NCBI GenBank assembly: GCA_048938445.1
Contig: JBHLME010000110.1
Location: 1-14,912, forward strand
From: Promethearchaeota archaeon
GTDB lineage: Archaea; Asgardarchaeota; Lokiarchaeia; Sigyniarchaeales; SOKP01
DNA length: 14,912 nt
Direction of reading: 5' to 3'
How positions within the stretch are numbered: position 1 is the stretch's first letter; every line of letters starts with the position of its first letter. Shown piece by piece: positions 2,451-14,388 of this stretch. The notes beneath the pieces are model-generated. The model saw only the letters and a program-made list of their open reading frames with translations, made no database searches and had not been told where the DNA came from. The position numbers and the translations under genes are program-made.

Positions 2451-3314
2451 TCAAGATTCATCCCTGATTTTTTCATAATAAGTTATTAAATTTTTAAATA
2501 CATAATGAGCAGGAGAAAATCCTTGAGTTGCAGATTTTGATAGGACTTTTTGAAGAAAGTCATCATGCTTACATCCCGTGATAGTTACATTAAGCTCTCT
2601 TATATTATACATGGACCTCCAAAACTGTGTTGGCCATGAAACAAGTGCTTCTAAGGTATTAAGGAATTTACTCTTTCCTTCTTTACTTAACTCCAATTCT
2701 TTCTTAACCTTATAAATATTACCACCATCTTTTTTAGTAATATTTATTATACCATCTTTTTCAATTTGTTTCATTAAATCATGTAATTCCGTGACCTTGA
2801 TTTCATTTATATTGAGTTTTTTTAAATTACTTAATATTTCTGTATCATCAATTTCTCTGAGTTTCATCATTACGTAATTTCGAGCAATAATATTATATTT
2901 CAAAGGTACTGTTTCATGATCTAAACGATTATATTGGATCAAATTTCCTAATATTTCCTTAGCGACCATGTATTTCAGTATTAATTGATCATCTACAGAA
3001 TAATCTCTTTTTAATTGTTCAGAATCGTTAAAATAAGAGTGATATAATGTTTGTAATAAAGTTTTAATGCTATAAAATCCATCTACTAAAGATTGTTCTA
3101 CATTTTTTAACACGTTTATTCTGAATTCAATATCATCCAAGAACTTATCTTTTTCTAATTTTATCGGACGAACTAAATGAGGTTTTCCAAATTCACTAAG
3201 ATATGCATCCCATTTTGTTTTAAAGCGATAATTTTGGGATTTACCAATACTTGAGAGTTTATAAACAACCTCATATAGTTTTTCTAAGAAAATCTTTTCT
3301 GTTACGTTAGTCAT
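2451..3314 (-). CDS. Hypothetical protein, mostly alpha-helical, with a probable winged-helix subdomain
   Basis: 287-aa ORF that fills the gap, with plausible composition. The segment DDTEILSNL...VTELHDLMKQIEKDGIINITKKDGGNIYKV has the wHTH pattern (recognition helix, LxxxGxI, beta-hairpin wing). No family recognised. Confidence 0.75.
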   Translation of the reverse strand: MTNVTEKIFLEKLYEVVYKLSSIGKSQNYRFKTKWDAYLSEFGKPHLVRPIKLEKDKFLDDIEFRINVLKNVEQSLVDGFYSIKTLLQTLYHSYFNDSEQLKRDYSVDDQLILKYMVAKEILGNLIQYNRLDHETVPLKYNIIARNYVMMKLREIDDTEILSNLKKLNINEIKVTELHDLMKQIEKDGIINITKKDGGNIYKVKKELELSKEGKSKFLNTLEALVSWPTQFWRSMYNIRELNVTITGCKHDDFLQKVLSKSATQGFSPAHYVFKNLITYYEKIRDES

Positions 3315-5174: not shown

Positions 5175-5180
5175 GGTGAT
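5175..5180 (+). promoter_or_regulatory. Shine-Dalgarno site of the pseudo-GTPase gene
   Basis: GGTGAT ending 5 nt before in-frame ATT 5186. Confidence 0.55.
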
Positions 5181-5185
5181 ATATT

Positions 5186-5968
5186 ATTTCAAAAACATTC
5201 AAAGTAAAGGTAGTGATTGGAGGAGAGTCTAGTCTTGAAAAGAACTCGTTCTTAAATCGAACTACCTTGGTCGAGGAGGAAATTGGAGTTTCCTTCAAAT
5301 CACTTGAATGTATTGTCAATGATAAAGATTCCTATAAATTAATCATGTGGGATTTGAATCCCGCGAAAGATATTTTTGGTTTCATGTATCCTCAATTTTG
5401 TAGAGGTGCAAAAGCATGTTTTTTATTTTTTGATTTTTCAAGATATGACTCCTTTAGTGAGTTACCTTATTGGATATCACTTTTTAGAAATACTCTCGGT
5501 GAGAATATTCCCATAATTTTAATTGGCACCTTACCTGAGATAAAGGTTCAGGAAGTTTATGAGGAAGATATTGAGGACGTGATAAAACGTTATCATCTCT
5601 ATCCCAAGTATTTTAAAGTATCTAACAAGGGAAATAAAAAAAAGAAAAAAAGAACAATTTATGAAAATTTAATCAAGAATATTGATCCTAATTGTGAAAT
5701 AGAAAAATTTAAGATAATCTCTCCTCTTGAAGATCAAAAATTTATAGAGTTCTTTATAAAATTTGCACGATGTCCTATTTGTAACAGAAAAAATCACGAG
5801 AGTTACTTGGCAAAATTCTTTTATAGCCAAGAAGATGACATTAAAAATCTAAGACAATACCTATTAGACTTTTTAGATGAATCGCGGTATCACCCCGAAT
5901 CTTACAAGAAAAGAATTAAGTTGGGAATTCCTTGTTGTTCTTGTTATCGCTTAATTTTTGAAAGTTAG
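5186..5968 (+). CDS. Rab/Ras-like small GTPase domain with degenerate G motifs (pseudo-GTPase) fused to a C-terminal Cys-rich putative Zn-binding domain
   Basis: GTPase fold landmarks: TFKVKVVIGG (beta1), IGVSF, KLIMWDL, FCRGAKACFLFFDFSRYDSF, IPIILIG and YFKVS; C-terminal CPIC...GIPCCSC. Start inferred at ATT 5186 (or 5183) after SD GGTGAT 5175-5180; the track start is GTG 5213. Confidence 0.8.
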   Translation: MSKTFKVKVVIGGESSLEKNSFLNRTTLVEEEIGVSFKSLECIVNDKDSYKLIMWDLNPAKDIFGFMYPQFCRGAKACFLFFDFSRYDSFSELPYWISLFRNTLGENIPIILIGTLPEIKVQEVYEEDIEDVIKRYHLYPKYFKVSNKGNKKKKKRTIYENLIKNIDPNCEIEKFKIISPLEDQKFIEFFIKFARCPICNRKNHESYLAKFFYSQEDDIKNLRQYLLDFLDESRYHPESYKKRIKLGIPCCSCYRLIFES

Positions 5969-10393: not shown

Positions 10394-10984
10394 ATGAGTG
10401 AAGGGCGATCATTTACATTTAAAGTAATAGTCGTTGGAGATGGTGCGGTTGGTAAGACTTCCTTAATAAGGCGTTTTGTTCACAATAAATTTGAGAAAGA
10501 TTATTTAATGACTTTAGGAAGCGAAATTACGAAATATACGCAAAATATTGATGGAAATAATATTTCATTAATTATTTGGGACTTAGCTGGTCAAGAAGGT
10601 TTTAAAAATATACGACAAAATTTTTTCACCGGAAGTAATGCAGCAATAATTGTTTTTTCTCATGAAGAAAATGAATCAGGTGAAAAAAGTCTAAAAAATG
10701 TTCCAAAATGGCTTGAAGAAATAACAAAACATACTAAAAAAATCCCTATAATGTTATTTGGTAATAAAATAGATTTAATCGATGTTGATAAGCTTAATAC
10801 TGACATGGCACTTCCAAAATCAGATTACAATCTCAATAAACTTGCTAATGATTTAGGATTTCTTGGATATTATAAAACAAGTGCATTATCGGGGGAAAAT
10901 GTCCATAATGCGTTTGGAACATTAATAAAGGAGTTATATCAAAAGCAAATAGCGATTCTTGAAAATTTAAAAAAAGAAATATAA
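10394..10984 (+). CDS. Rab-like small GTPase (Ras superfamily; eukaryotic signature protein type)
   Basis: Intact G1 GDGAVGKT, G2 YLMTLG, G3 WDLAGQE, G4 NKID and G5 TSAL; no C-terminal Cys prenylation motif. Confidence 0.95.
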   Translation: MSEGRSFTFKVIVVGDGAVGKTSLIRRFVHNKFEKDYLMTLGSEITKYTQNIDGNNISLIIWDLAGQEGFKNIRQNFFTGSNAAIIVFSHEENESGEKSLKNVPKWLEEITKHTKKIPIMLFGNKIDLIDVDKLNTDMALPKSDYNLNKLANDLGFLGYYKTSALSGENVHNAFGTLIKELYQKQIAILENLKKEI

Positions 10985-11222: not shown

Positions 11223-13118
11223 ATGACCGAATTCAATAAGATAATTGAAAATTTAACAAAAAAAAATAAAGAATTAGAATATATAATCAACAAAAGCCCT
11301 GTTATAGTTCTACTTTGGAAAAATGAAGAGAATTGGCCTGTAGAATTTGTTTCAGAAAATATTTCACAATTTGGTTTCACACAAGAAGAATTTATTTCTG
11401 GTAAAATTAAATATTCTGAGATAATATATGCTGAGGATTTGAAACGTGTACAAAAAGAAGTAGATTTTTACATTAATAGTGATTTTACAGAATTCACTCA
11501 AGAGTATAGGATTATTGATAAATCAAACGAAATTAGGTGGATTGATGATAGAACATTCATTAGACGAGATACTAAAGATGAAATTACTCATTTCCAAGGT
11601 GTAATATTTGATATTACAGAAAAGAAAAAAATCTTGGAAGAATTAAAAAACTCTGAACAAAAATTTAGAATGATATCAGAACAAGCATTAGTGGCAATAG
11701 GGATAATTCAAGATGATAAAATCGTATACGTCAATCAAAAAGCAGCTGAGATTTTTGGGTATGAGATAAATGAGATGAAAAGCTGGGCACCTGGAGAATT
11801 TGCTAAAACAATTCATCCAGATCATCTTGAAGAAGAAATTAAATATATTAATCAAATACAAACTGATTCAACAGTTAATGAGATTCAATTTCAAACTAAA
11901 GGGATAAGTAAGTCTGGAGAAGAATTTTGGGCAGAAGCATTGTTTAAGAAGTTTTTATATAATGACCGGCCTGCACTTATAGGTATGTTTATTAACATAA
12001 CTGAAAGGAAAAGGGTAGAAAATGCTTTAAAGTTCACTCAATTTGCAGTTGACCATAGTGTCAACCCTGCTTTATGGATGGATGACCAATTCAATATTAT
12101 TTATGTAAATGAAGCTATGTGTAAATCGTTAGGTTATACAGAAGAGGAATTACTTGGTATGAAGGGTTTAGATCTTAATCCAACTTATCCCAAAGATGCT
12201 TGGGAACCTACATGGAAGGAAATTAAAGAGAAAGGATCACTTGTTATAGAAACTTATCATAAAAAGAAAAATGGGGTATTATTCCCTGTAGAAGTATATT
12301 TAAGTTACTTACAATATGACAATAAGGAATATAACTGCGCATTTGTCCATGACATTAGCGAACGTAAAGAATCATTGAAAATTATTAAGGATTCAGAAGA
12401 AAAATATCGTGAAGCATTTTATCGAGAAAATTTTTATAAGGATTTATTTACGCATGACATGAAAAATATTATGCAAGCTATCAATAGTTCATTGGAGATT
12501 TATGAGTATATATTGAGAGATGAAATGAGATATGCCCAAGACAAAAAGTTACTTGATAATATTCATTCTCAAATAGACAGAGGGGCTCATTTAATTAATA
12601 ATATAAAAAGATATTCAGATTTAGAATCTTTTGAACTTCCCCTTATAAAGCTGAATATTTATAAAATTATACAATCAGAAATTAGTATTATACAAAATTT
12701 AATTAAAAATCAAAAAATTTTCATCGAACTATTACCCCGTGAAGATCCTGAGTTTTTCAGTTTAGGAAATGAACTTATTCATGAAATATTTGAAAATATC
12801 TTGCAGAATTCAATTATTCACAATGAAAATGAAAAGATTATTATTTCGATTTTGATATTTAAAATTTTAAAAGAACAAAAATCATATATAAGGATAGAAA
12901 TCTCTGATAATGGGAGAGGGATTGAAGATTCAAGAAAAAATATTGTCTTTAATCGTGCTTATAATCAAGACAAATCAAAAATAGGGATGGGGCTAGGTTT
13001 ATCCCTAGTAAAATTAATTATAGAAAAATTTGATGGAGAGATCTGGATAGAAGATAAAGTTCCTGGTGATTATAAACAGGGAAGTAGATTCATCATATTA
13101 TTACCGCAGATAAGTTAA
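11223..13118 (+). CDS. Cytoplasmic sensor histidine kinase with three PAS/PAC domains
   Basis: Three PAS repeats ending DITEKK, NITERK and DISERK; H-box FTHDMKN; N-box ENILQNSIIH; G1 DNGRGI; G2 GMGLGL. No hydrophobic TM segment. Confidence 0.93.
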   Translation: MTEFNKIIENLTKKNKELEYIINKSPVIVLLWKNEENWPVEFVSENISQFGFTQEEFISGKIKYSEIIYAEDLKRVQKEVDFYINSDFTEFTQEYRIIDKSNEIRWIDDRTFIRRDTKDEITHFQGVIFDITEKKKILEELKNSEQKFRMISEQALVAIGIIQDDKIVYVNQKAAEIFGYEINEMKSWAPGEFAKTIHPDHLEEEIKYINQIQTDSTVNEIQFQTKGISKSGEEFWAEALFKKFLYNDRPALIGMFINITERKRVENALKFTQFAVDHSVNPALWMDDQFNIIYVNEAMCKSLGYTEEELLGMKGLDLNPTYPKDAWEPTWKEIKEKGSLVIETYHKKKNGVLFPVEVYLSYLQYDNKEYNCAFVHDISERKESLKIIKDSEEKYREAFYRENFYKDLFTHDMKNIMQAINSSLEIYEYILRDEMRYAQDKKLLDNIHSQIDRGAHLINNIKRYSDLESFELPLIKLNIYKIIQSEISIIQNLIKNQKIFIELLPREDPEFFSLGNELIHEIFENILQNSIIHNENEKIIISILIFKILKEQKSYIRIEISDNGRGIEDSRKNIVFNRAYNQDKSKIGMGLGLSLVKLIIEKFDGEIWIEDKVPGDYKQGSRFIILLPQIS

Positions 13119-13233: not shown

Positions 13234-14388
13234 ATGAGCAATCTTAATGAAAATTCTGAAAATTTAATAAAACGGTATGAACTGATTGATTTCATCATAA
13301 ATAAAAGCCCATATATTATATTTCTTTGGAGAAATGAAGAGAATTGGCCTGTTGATTTTGTTACAGAAAATATTTCTAAGTTTGGATATACTCAAGAGGA
13401 TTTTCTTTCGGATAAAATTCGTTATACTGAAATAATTCATCCCGATGATGTTGACCGCGTTTCTAAAGAGACTCATTCTTATTGTGCAAGTGGTGCAACA
13501 GAATTTACTCAAGAATATAGAATTTTTAAAAAATCAGGAGAGGTCATATGGATTGATGACAGAACTTTTATAAGAAGAGATCCAGTGAGAAAAGTAGCCT
13601 ATTTCCAAGGTGTTATCCTTGATATAACTGAAAAAAAAAAGATTCAGCAAGAATTAGAAAATTCAGAACAAAAATTCCGATTAGCATTCCATCGAGAAAA
13701 TTTTTATAAAGATCTTTTCATGCATGACATGCGAAATATATTACAGTCTATTGGTAATTCATTGGAGATTTATGAGTATGAATTGAAAGAAGAAATGAAT
13801 AATGATCAAAATATACAGTCTCTTGAGAGAATCCACACTCATATAGAAAGGGGGGCTCATTTAATTAATAATATAAAAAAATTTTCTGAATTAGAATTTA
13901 TAACCCATTCCTTAGAAAAACAAAATATCTATCAAATCATACAAAAATGTGTAAACACTGTTCAAAGTTCAATAAGAAGTAAAAAAATGTTAATCAAGAT
14001 TGATCCTAAGAATGACCCAAAATTTATGATATTAGGAAATGAACTTATAAATGAAGCGATCGAAAATATCTTAATGAATTCCATTATTCATAATGATAAT
14101 GAAGAGGTAATAATTTCGATTTTGATGTTTAATGTTTTAAAAGACCAAAAAGCTCATATTAGAATTGAAATTTCAGATAATGCTAGAGGGATTGAAGATT
14201 CGAGAAAACAAATCATTTTCGATCGGGCTCATAATCAAGATAAGTCAAAAATTGGGATGGGATTAGGTTTATCTTTAGTAAAAATAATTATAGAAAATAT
14301 TAATGGAGATATTTGGATAGAAGATAATGTTCCAGGGGATTATGAACAAGGTAGTAAATTTATCTTATTAATACCAAAAGTAGAATAG
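13234..14388 (+). CDS. Cytoplasmic sensor histidine kinase with one PAS/PAC domain; paralogue of the upstream kinase
   Basis: PAS ending DITEKK; H-box FMHDMRN; N-box ENILMNSIIH; G1 DNARGI; G2 GMGLGL. Colinear with 11223..13118. Confidence 0.93.
   Translation: MSNLNENSENLIKRYELIDFIINKSPYIIFLWRNEENWPVDFVTENISKFGYTQEDFLSDKIRYTEIIHPDDVDRVSKETHSYCASGATEFTQEYRIFKKSGEVIWIDDRTFIRRDPVRKVAYFQGVILDITEKKKIQQELENSEQKFRLAFHRENFYKDLFMHDMRNILQSIGNSLEIYEYELKEEMNNDQNIQSLERIHTHIERGAHLINNIKKFSELEFITHSLEKQNIYQIIQKCVNTVQSSIRSKKMLIKIDPKNDPKFMILGNELINEAIENILMNSIIHNDNEEVIISILMFNVLKDQKAHIRIEISDNARGIEDSRKQIIFDRAHNQDKSKIGMGLGLSLVKIIIENINGDIWIEDNVPGDYEQGSKFILLIPKVE

Follow-up and report, generated by a model that had tools for sequence, protein, structure and literature searches.

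Small GTPases of the Asgard archaea are studied as forerunners of the membrane-traffic switches of eukaryotes, and the surveys of this group, in their accessible text, describe intact G domains without C-terminal extensions. Archaeal Rab-like sequences were described as lacking both the C-terminal extension and its Cys (accessible part of Surkont & Pereira-Leal 2016, PMC4915359), and the 74 small-GTPase sequences of MK-D1, some of them with "?" domains of unknown function, include none with a terminal Cys according to the available part of Tran et al. (2024, PMC10933270), which also gives a measured GTPase activity for Thor-Rab (assay in the legend of Fig. 1). Proteins that have the GTPase fold and neither bind nor hydrolyse nucleotide are termed class i pseudo-GTPases (PMC12490416), with CENP-M, the pG domains of p190RhoGAP and the pseudo-GTPase domain (psGD) of AAGAB as eukaryotic examples (PMC4080450, PMC5593906, PMC12490416; excerpts of each). 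Here we describe a gene at 5186..5968 on the + strand of a stretch of 14,912 nucleotides (nt) from a Promethearchaeota archaeon (contig JBHLME010000110.1; the whole stretch is referred to as the window), which consists of 260 codons followed by TAG and which we identify with high confidence as encoding a Rab-like pseudo-GTPase joined to a new, Cys-rich metal domain.

The window protein shares with the surveyed Asgard Rab-like GTPases (PMC4915359, PMC10933270) the fold, the closest sequence relationship and the RabF-type interswitch and switch II motifs; unlike those proteins, which have intact G motifs and no C-terminal extension or Cys as far as the accessible text of the surveys goes, it lacks G1 to G5 and has a Cys domain of 80 amino acids (aa). 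It also resembles CENP-M, the p190RhoGAP pG domains and the AAGAB psGD in combining a GTPase fold with the loss of the G motifs and with selection as an interaction module, an analogy which makes nucleotide-independent scaffolding likely. It is unlike them in being archaeal, Rab-derived and fused to a metal domain, in having living intermediates, in sharing sequence kinship with them only at the superfamily level, and in that its nucleotide-free state is a prediction from sequence. By sequence and predicted structure it has the structural hallmark of class i, a GTPase fold from which the G-motif residues are absent. Pseudo-GTPases are thus known as a kind, and the archaeal, Rab-derived origin and the fusion to a new domain are what is new. 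An earlier note, made on this DNA from its letters, had called the gene its best candidate for an undescribed Asgard signalling component, and no prior description was found in the Asgard GTPase literature searched: no paper pairs 'Asgard' with 'pseudoGTPase', and the literature on Asgard small GTPases and zinc or zinc ribbons does not describe the architecture, which the supplementary tables of the surveys may list among their '?' domains. Many GTPase families, and not that of the window protein, are mentioned in the available parts of Liu et al. 2020 (bioRxiv 10.1101/2020.10.19.343400) and PMC12962969.

The Rab-like domain and its degenerate G motifs

The reading frame is open from the codon at 5180 to the TAG at 5966-5968 and is preceded by an in-frame TGA (5177-5179), and the absence of stops noted from the sequence holds over all 260 codons. 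The G+C content of the gene (~0.29–0.34) is like that of the remaining window, and the opposite strand of the stretch has no open reading frame (ORF) of at least 60 aa. Residue numbers given here count from the codon at 5180, the first one past the TGA, while the numbers of the AlphaFold2 model are two lower.

A G domain of the Ras/Rab fold, running from beta1 to alpha5, occupies 5192..5689 (+). It was matched by two Pfam families, Ras (PF00071; residues 30-168, E 6.3e-11, 42.6 bits against a curated cut-off of 21.6) and Roc (residues 10-117, E 5.2e-8). The alignment to the Ras profile begins at its position 27 and leaves the P-loop part unaligned; the intact GTPase at 10394, by comparison, matches the entire Ras profile with 140.9 bits. 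A profile of 62 family members matched 911 solved PDB chains at E <= 1e-5, with Rab11 as the top match (E 3.2e-31) and with the best 60 of the 911 all being Rabs. AlphaFold2, run on the 62-member alignment, returned a model with a mean predicted local distance difference test score (pLDDT) of 90.9, a predicted template modelling (TM) score of 0.80 and no stretch below a pLDDT of 50, in which the predicted elements follow the order of a G domain (beta1-alpha1-beta2-beta3-alpha2-beta4-alpha3-beta5-alpha4-beta6-alpha5). Foldseek comparison of this predicted model with the PDB again returned the Rab fold, with Rabs on top (E 1.3e-11 for Rab43), at target-normalised TM scores of 0.71–0.78 and root-mean-square deviations of 3–4 A for these matches.

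In G domains, the residues of G1 to G5 hold the phosphate, Mg2+ and guanine, and the Thr of G2 and the Gly of G3 make up the "loaded-spring" switch. The earlier note had read all five motifs as eroded; every string that it quoted was found in its place, and no canonical G motif is left in the protein, with the refinement that the P-loop Lys is retained. Thus the G1 remnant GESSLEKN (5222..5245, +) differs from GxxxxGK[ST] in having Glu for Gly and Asn for Ser/Thr, and keeps the Lys (K21). In the switch I or RabF1-type stretch EEEIGVSF (5273..5296, +), a Glu takes the place of the Thr of G2, and the G3 remnant WDLNP (5348..5362, +) retains the Asp (D58), has lost the Gly of DxxG and is without the catalytic Gln. 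At G4, GTLPE (5525..5539, +; GTLP at 5525-5536) stands instead of [NT]KxD, and the G5 remnant, in which guanine contacts of the S-A-[KL] type are missing, is VSNK (5618..5629, +), with TSI in most orthologues. Of the signatures of a GTP-binding switch, neither G1, nor the G2 Thr and G3 DxxG, nor G4 and G5 was found in the window protein.

The Rab-family surface motifs, which had been proposed to persist in this protein, were recovered in the alignment of the family profile to Rab11, where IGVSF, KLIMW, FCRGA and LFFDFS fall on the RabF stretches IGVEF, KAQIW, YYRGA and LVYDIT, and the interswitch and switch II positions of RabF type are among the best conserved of the family. FCRGA (5396..5410, +), which lies at the end of switch II at the site of the Rab YYRGA-type motif, is conserved in the close family. 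The names and consensus strings of the RabF motifs reportedly go back to work of Pereira-Leal and Seabra in 2000, and were not found as text in Surkont & Pereira-Leal 2016.

The host genome contains 94 Ras-family matches, and after dropping 12 short or partial ones, 82 were checked for the P-loop. GxxxxGK[ST] was present in 77/82 and missing in five, which are the window protein, a near miss on contig C215 (G000:C215:20968-21444, -), two tandem domains within one ORF of 542 aa on C85 (G000:C85:1300-2532, +) and one domain on C92 (G000:C92:5379-5792, -). Judged by their sequences, the other P-loop-less domains may be further archaeal pseudo-GTPases.

The Cys-rich C-terminal domain

Behind the G domain follows a mostly helical, Cys-rich domain of ~78 aa (5729..5962, +), recognised by its own hidden Markov model at residues 184-261 (E 2.5e-29). 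The first CxxC pair is CPIC (5771..5782, +), followed by an NH dipeptide (5792..5797, +) and by GIPCCSC (5924..5944, +; Cys codons 5933-5938 and 5942-5944), the outer two Cys of which make up the second CxxC pair. Invariant residues are both Cys and the Pro in CPxC and, in GIPCCxC, the Gly, the Pro and all three Cys, in the alignment of 62/62 two-domain proteins and of 20/20 stand-alone or otherwise fused copies, with N-H nearly invariant, and a degenerate copy elsewhere in the genome has kept the C-x-x-C spacing with Glu as middle residue in place of Cys. The four invariant Cys in two CxxC-type pairs agree with the Cys4 arrangement suggested by the earlier note, and the two pairs are likely to be the ligand set; as the His of NH is absent in a few relatives, it is probably not among the four core ligands. 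When modelled alone (pLDDT 82.4), the domain is predicted by AlphaFold2 to consist of a helix, a short knuckle with CPxC, three helices and a final helix beginning at CCxC, and the full-length model shows the same elements. Complex prediction of a homodimer of the domain with zinc scored 0.00 against a mark of 0.42, which speaks neither for nor against binding. The G-domain residues C44 and C74 were considered as an extra metal site and rejected, as they co-occur in 34/64 rows, maybe through shared ancestry, and the stand-alone domains have no G domain.

The prenylatable Cys of Rabs are located at the extreme C-terminus, in a CC, CXC or CCXX arrangement. A terminal Cys of this type is absent from the window protein, in which 8 more residues follow the Cys cluster. 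The CC-x-C cluster does lie near the C-terminus beside basic and hydrophobic residues, and could alternatively be a lipidation site or membrane anchor, the archaeal counterpart of the prenylated Rab tail, instead of a metal site; this would make the family an exception among archaeal Rab-like proteins, which the accessible text of the surveys describes as lacking C-terminal extensions or Cys (PMC4915359, PMC10933270). In addition to its distance from the terminus, the cluster is always paired with an invariant CPxC ~50 residues upstream, lies, in the AlphaFold2 models, where a helix of a folded domain begins, and in one copy has Glu for the middle Cys with the CxxC spacing kept, and we consider lipidation very unlikely.

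No significant match to a known family or fold was found for the C-terminal domain. Pfam gave no match to the domain at E <= 0.01 (best zf-C2HC_2, E 0.16, and Rad50_zn_hook with E 0.038 for the relative P0109), NCBIfam gave none for the window protein or domain at E <= 0.1 (best domain-only relative P0109, E 0.23), and the best PDB profile matches, the Rad50 hook (6zff, 1l8d) and the zinc ribbon of TFE, were non-significant at E 0.039. Structural searches with the predicted domain were likewise without result, with a best E of 0.47 for Foldseek against the PDB and a best Z of 4.2, and none of at least 5, for VIA-align against 48,161 chains, and a search of the ESM Atlas with the C-terminal part gave no usable match. 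A stand-alone relative, P0133, had an NCBIfam match to Cas6 (E 0.00053) which at 20.5 bits is far under the cut-off of 58.65. Proteins carrying the domain are without precomputed Pfam domains and are annotated in their sources as "hypothetical protein". With the Rad50 zinc hook, small CxxC ribbons and treble clefs the domain shares a CPxC knuckle flanked by helices, and the hook is among its best, non-significant, profile matches; unlike the Rad50 hook, which has two Cys per chain and requires a partner chain, it has two invariant CxxC pairs within one domain. By these searches the Cys domain appears to be a new family of ~80 aa without known relatives or fold, to be added to domain databases, and some Asgard Rab-like proteins carry a folded, Cys-rich C-terminal domain that matches none of the described kinds.

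Three ORFs of the host genome carry the Cys domain: the window protein, a 154 aa protein on contig C182 (G000:C182:1113-1574, -), which represents the stand-alone form found in nearly every genome of the family, and a 498 aa protein on contig C62 (G000:C62:1461-2954, +) with two tandem copies and no GTPase. The first of the tandem copies is the degenerate one (PCEDC), and the ~330 residues ahead of them have no Pfam match. Elsewhere, stand-alone Cys-domain proteins of 84–200 aa often have an N-terminal helix motif S-L-R-D-E-M-L-x-E-L-x-R-L-R, and the domain is also located behind intact or degenerate Rab-like domains, with linkers of up to ~200 residues containing the same helix motif. The domain hence occurs alone, in tandem and behind Rab-like domains with long linkers. 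An extended form of the motif, S-L-R-D-E-M-L-x-E-L-x-R-L-R-x-I-M, precedes the Cys domain in P0047, P0050, P0062, P0076, P0078, P0088, P0099, P0112, P0133 and others, and the stand-alone forms resemble the linker-plus-domain part of the long Rab-like fusions.

In a phylum-wide sample the domain was found at E <= 1e-6 in 63/301 genomes; these include 62/68 genomes of the family to which the window belongs and, at the same threshold, none of the 232 genomes sampled from 29 other families. In the order-level sample, a full-length match was also obtained from a genome of a second family (G020). The neighbourhoods of the two other host Cys-domain genes had no recurring partner, with an HD-domain protein, a heterodisulfide-reductase-like protein, a thiolase, PAP2, a nitroreductase and DUF4332 as neighbours.

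Small CxxC...CxxC domains often bind DNA or RNA, and the protein might accordingly be a Rab-fold-derived regulator of transcription or RNA instead of a protein-protein adaptor. A polybasic stretch at the start of helix alpha5 (GNKKKKKR, 5630..5653, +) would fit such a role, as would the weak, non-significant profile matches to the TFE zinc ribbon and the Rad50 hook (E ~0.04). Neither Pfam, PDB profiles, Foldseek nor VIA-align returned a significant match to a nucleic-acid-binding family or fold, and the gene neighbourhoods give no hint in this direction, and we regard nucleic acid binding as unlikely.

Relatives, motif loss, selection and translation start

Of the 330 candidates of a word-indexed search, 28 proteins reached E <= 1e-3; all are 248–276 aa in length and have both Ras and Roc matches, with Lokiarchaeota, Promethearchaeota or "Hermodarchaeota" metagenome-assembled genomes as their named sources. 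An exhaustive search gave 2337 representatives at E <= 1e-3, of which 125 were at E <= 1e-10 and 20 at E <= 1e-30. In the order-level sample, a match at E <= 1e-25 was present in 67/151 genomes and 12/24 genera, and the fused gene in 0/53 genomes of the sister genus g2, in which the stand-alone form of the Cys domain was found in 18/22 genomes.

Positional orthologues were collected from 29 loci in other genomes, each spanning ~1.5 kb on either side. A glyoxalase-like gene was located on one side in 28/29 loci, and a gene for a NUDIX protein and/or metallophosphoesterase on the other side in 28/29, with the two exceptions (both flanks together) located at contig ends. The neighbours in the window are glyoxalase-like, NUDIX, metallophosphoesterase and AlaRS genes, in conserved order. 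A functional link with these neighbours was considered and set aside in favour of general synteny, as the glyoxalase-like gene is on the opposite strand at one locus (L011) and the sister genus keeps the neighbours without the gene. In genus g7 (L013, L015, L017) the conserved slot contains a tandem gene duplication, with copies 36–44% identical to the window protein.

None of the 29 positional orthologues keeps the G2 Thr or the G3 DxxG, while G1 (GxxxxGK[ST]) is kept in 27/29 and G4 (xKxD) in 23/29. The motif loss seen in the window protein is therefore conserved in orthologues for the G2 Thr and G3 Gly and is not for G1 and G4, and since the positional orthologues beyond the genus of the window mostly keep the latter two, loss of G1 and G4 is lineage-specific. 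G4 is lost in all four species of that genus (GTLPE, GTTPE, GTLPE and GTLTD), and within the genus G1 is additionally lost in the window and L009 only; a separate, independent loss of G1 was seen in L031 of genus g5.

A maximum-likelihood tree of 61 rows, from which P0040, P0058, P0097 and P0171 were left out as N-terminally truncated or aberrant, grouped the window protein with P0002 and P0003 (100/100), all three having lost all motifs. Their sister group is P0004-6, which have kept G1 (the six together 100/92), and the enclosing clade of 36 rows (100/99) mostly keeps G1 and G4. Among distant two-domain members, P0042 keeps the G2 Thr and DxxG (GSSQVGKT, DTIGVDF, WDIKG), and other distant members do likewise. 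When the 61 rows were split by strict patterns, with digits for the G motifs kept and G4 taken as [NT]KxD, there were 21 '1--4', 12 '1---', 9 '----', 6 '-2--', 3 '12--', 2 '-2-4' and 2 '-23-', with single cases of '1234' (the reference at 10394), '---4', '1-34', '--3-', '123-' and '1-3-'. Judged by the motif states across the tree and in the distant members, the family is descended from ordinary Rab-like GTPases, with erosion that was repeated and went to differing depths, and the window protein stands at its far end. Since sister genomes still contain the intermediate stages as positional orthologues, the order of motif loss is readable and each stage can be tested biochemically.

These motif states bear on whether the protein is still a nucleotide-binding switch, in which a remodelled pocket with K21 and D58 binds GTP, GDP or another nucleotide in a non-canonical manner. 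Within the close family D58 never varies and K21 hardly does, and the retention of G1 and G4 in most orthologues implies that the ancestral protein bound nucleotide. In the window protein itself, the substitutions of the P-loop Gly and Ser/Thr are joined by the absence of both Lys and Asp from G4 and of the G2 Thr and G3 Gly, and the phosphate loop contains two acidic residues, E16 and E20, which are conserved in P0002 and P0003. On this evidence, retention of nucleotide binding in the window protein is improbable.

Selection was estimated by the Nei-Gojobori method (NG86) as the ratio of nonsynonymous to synonymous substitution rates (dN/dS). In comparison with the nearest orthologue, L009 (77% aa identity), the whole gene had a pN of 0.133, a pS of 0.674 and an approximate dN/dS of 0.086, with 0.063 for the G domain and 0.138 for the Cys domain, and other pairs gave similarly low values (L010 vs L011, 0.077; L014 vs L016, 0.099; L015 vs L017, 0.059). 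These values are far from 1. Constraint on the fully degenerate G domain is at least as strong as on the G domains that keep G1 and G4, and the derived P-loop G-G-E-x-S-x-E-K-N is conserved among the window protein, P0002 and P0003. Because of the low dN/dS, the confident AlphaFold2 model and the presence at the same position in 29 other genomes, we conclude from these comparisons that the gene is under purifying selection and not decaying, which means that a Rab-like domain can be retained by selection after losing all of its nucleotide-binding motifs.

With the start codons of translation table 11 (ATG, GTG, TTG), the first start in frame is GTG 5213, which is located inside strand beta1, with none upstream. 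Initiation at this codon would remove beta1, and since species differ synonymously within beta1 and its residues (K-T/S-F/Y-K-V/I-K) are conserved, the comparison indicates that translation must begin upstream of GTG 5213. Only TAT, ATT, ATT and TCA lie in frame between the TGA at 5177-5179 and the conserved beta1 Lys. The putative start is the near-cognate ATT at 5186..5188 (+), which the earlier note had inferred, with ATT 5183 as alternative. It is preceded by a Shine-Dalgarno-like hexamer, GGTGAT (5175..5180, +), which is shared by all four species of the genus (window, L009, L010, L011) and also occurs in a strain variant and at a relative's contig end; the GTG within it belongs to the reading frame of the gene in L009 and L011, and lies outside this frame in L010 and the window.

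This arrangement could also mean that the window copy is a recently disabled allele, in which a one-base insertion after an ancestral GTG 5176 leaves the protein unmade or without beta1. Such an origin would agree with the in-frame GTG of L009 and L011, and with a strain variant (X6; 11 substitutions, 2 gaps) in which one base fewer at 5184 brings GTG 5176 back into frame. The letters of the window are, on the other hand, reproduced by contigs of another study (X3 record 2, 728 nt, 0 differences), and L010 and a relative's contig end (X8) are also without canonical start, yet have GGTGAT 3–5 nt before an in-frame ATT or ATA; in X8, an in-frame TAA is followed by ATA, which fits the N-terminus of P0003. 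The codons of beta1 show synonymous changes between species, and there are no stops or frameshifts in the 260 codons. A disabled allele is thus improbable, and as three lineages share the combination of GGTGAT with ATT or ATA, initiation at a near-cognate ATT/ATA 3–5 nt past the hexamer is favoured over a damaged start on the basis of these alignments. In the orthologue L018 (G017), the frame opens directly past a TAA, two codons behind an in-frame ATG preceded by GGAGG, and has CTG as its first codon.

Proposed function and surroundings of the gene

The explanation that we favour overall, with moderate confidence, is that of an adaptor in which a nucleotide-free pseudo-GTPase of class-i type is linked with a Cys4 metal module; the adaptor mechanism as such, proposed as the most economical function, is held slightly less firmly. 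The earlier note had suggested a scaffold or decoy. Having lost the Gly and Ser/Thr of the P-loop, the Thr of G2, the Gly of G3 and both Lys and Asp of G4, the G domain is predicted to bind neither phosphate and Mg2+ nor guanine, and without the Thr/Gly switch it would be fixed as a single-state, nucleotide-free module. Its interswitch and switch II surface, under strong purifying selection, would then be a face that binds proteins constitutively. The C-terminal domain is expected to be a small helical module built around one metal ion bound by CPIC and C-C-S-C, most likely zinc, with Fe-S as the other candidate, and as a mobile, lineage-specific domain it would most likely provide a second binding surface. 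The whole protein may thus function as a nucleotide-independent adaptor in which the Rab-type face and the Cys domain bind different partners or, alternatively, in which the Cys domain binds the Rab surface itself. Most orthologues, which keep G1 and G4 and lack the G2 Thr and G3 Gly, are expected from their motifs to bind nucleotide without switching.

Several observations weigh against this adaptor reading. K21 of the P-loop and D58 of G3 are retained, which leaves room for an unusual ligand, and the window allele, having no canonical start codon, may be start-damaged. The dS between the window gene and L009 is 1.7, which is near saturation and makes the dN/dS ratio approximate, though the gap between pN and pS is clear. 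Finally, the gene is missing from its slot in both syntenic loci of the sister genus g2 (2/4 loci examined keep the synteny, with the NUDIX and glyoxalase-like genes 33 nt apart and nothing between them), and it is therefore dispensable in that genus.

As a more far-reaching and tentative possibility, which we rate as unlikely on present evidence, the locus may preserve a living series from Rab-like GTPase to nucleotide-free pseudo-GTPase, in which G2 and G3 were lost first, then G4 and then G1. The protein would have been fused throughout to a lineage-born metal domain of new fold, acting as a built-in, effector-like partner of the interswitch and switch II face, and stand-alone copies of the domain could bind the same face in trans. 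If true, it would be the first pseudo-GTPase system described from archaea and would offer a natural model of pseudo-GTPase origin. The practical reach of the findings on this family is limited, as the family is a narrow one, a sister genus lacks the gene in its slot and no partner has been indicated so far.

Two further features of the window were recorded. On the - strand, 2451-3314 encodes a 287 aa protein without Pfam match, which at 50–62% identity is located beside the glyoxalase-like gene in many syntenic loci, including those of genus g2. Further downstream, past the intact Rab-like GTPase at 10394, the + strand encodes two neighbouring histidine kinases with PAS domains (11223-13118 and 13234-14388), which are paralogues of each other and have near-identical N-terminal PAS and C-terminal HATPase regions.

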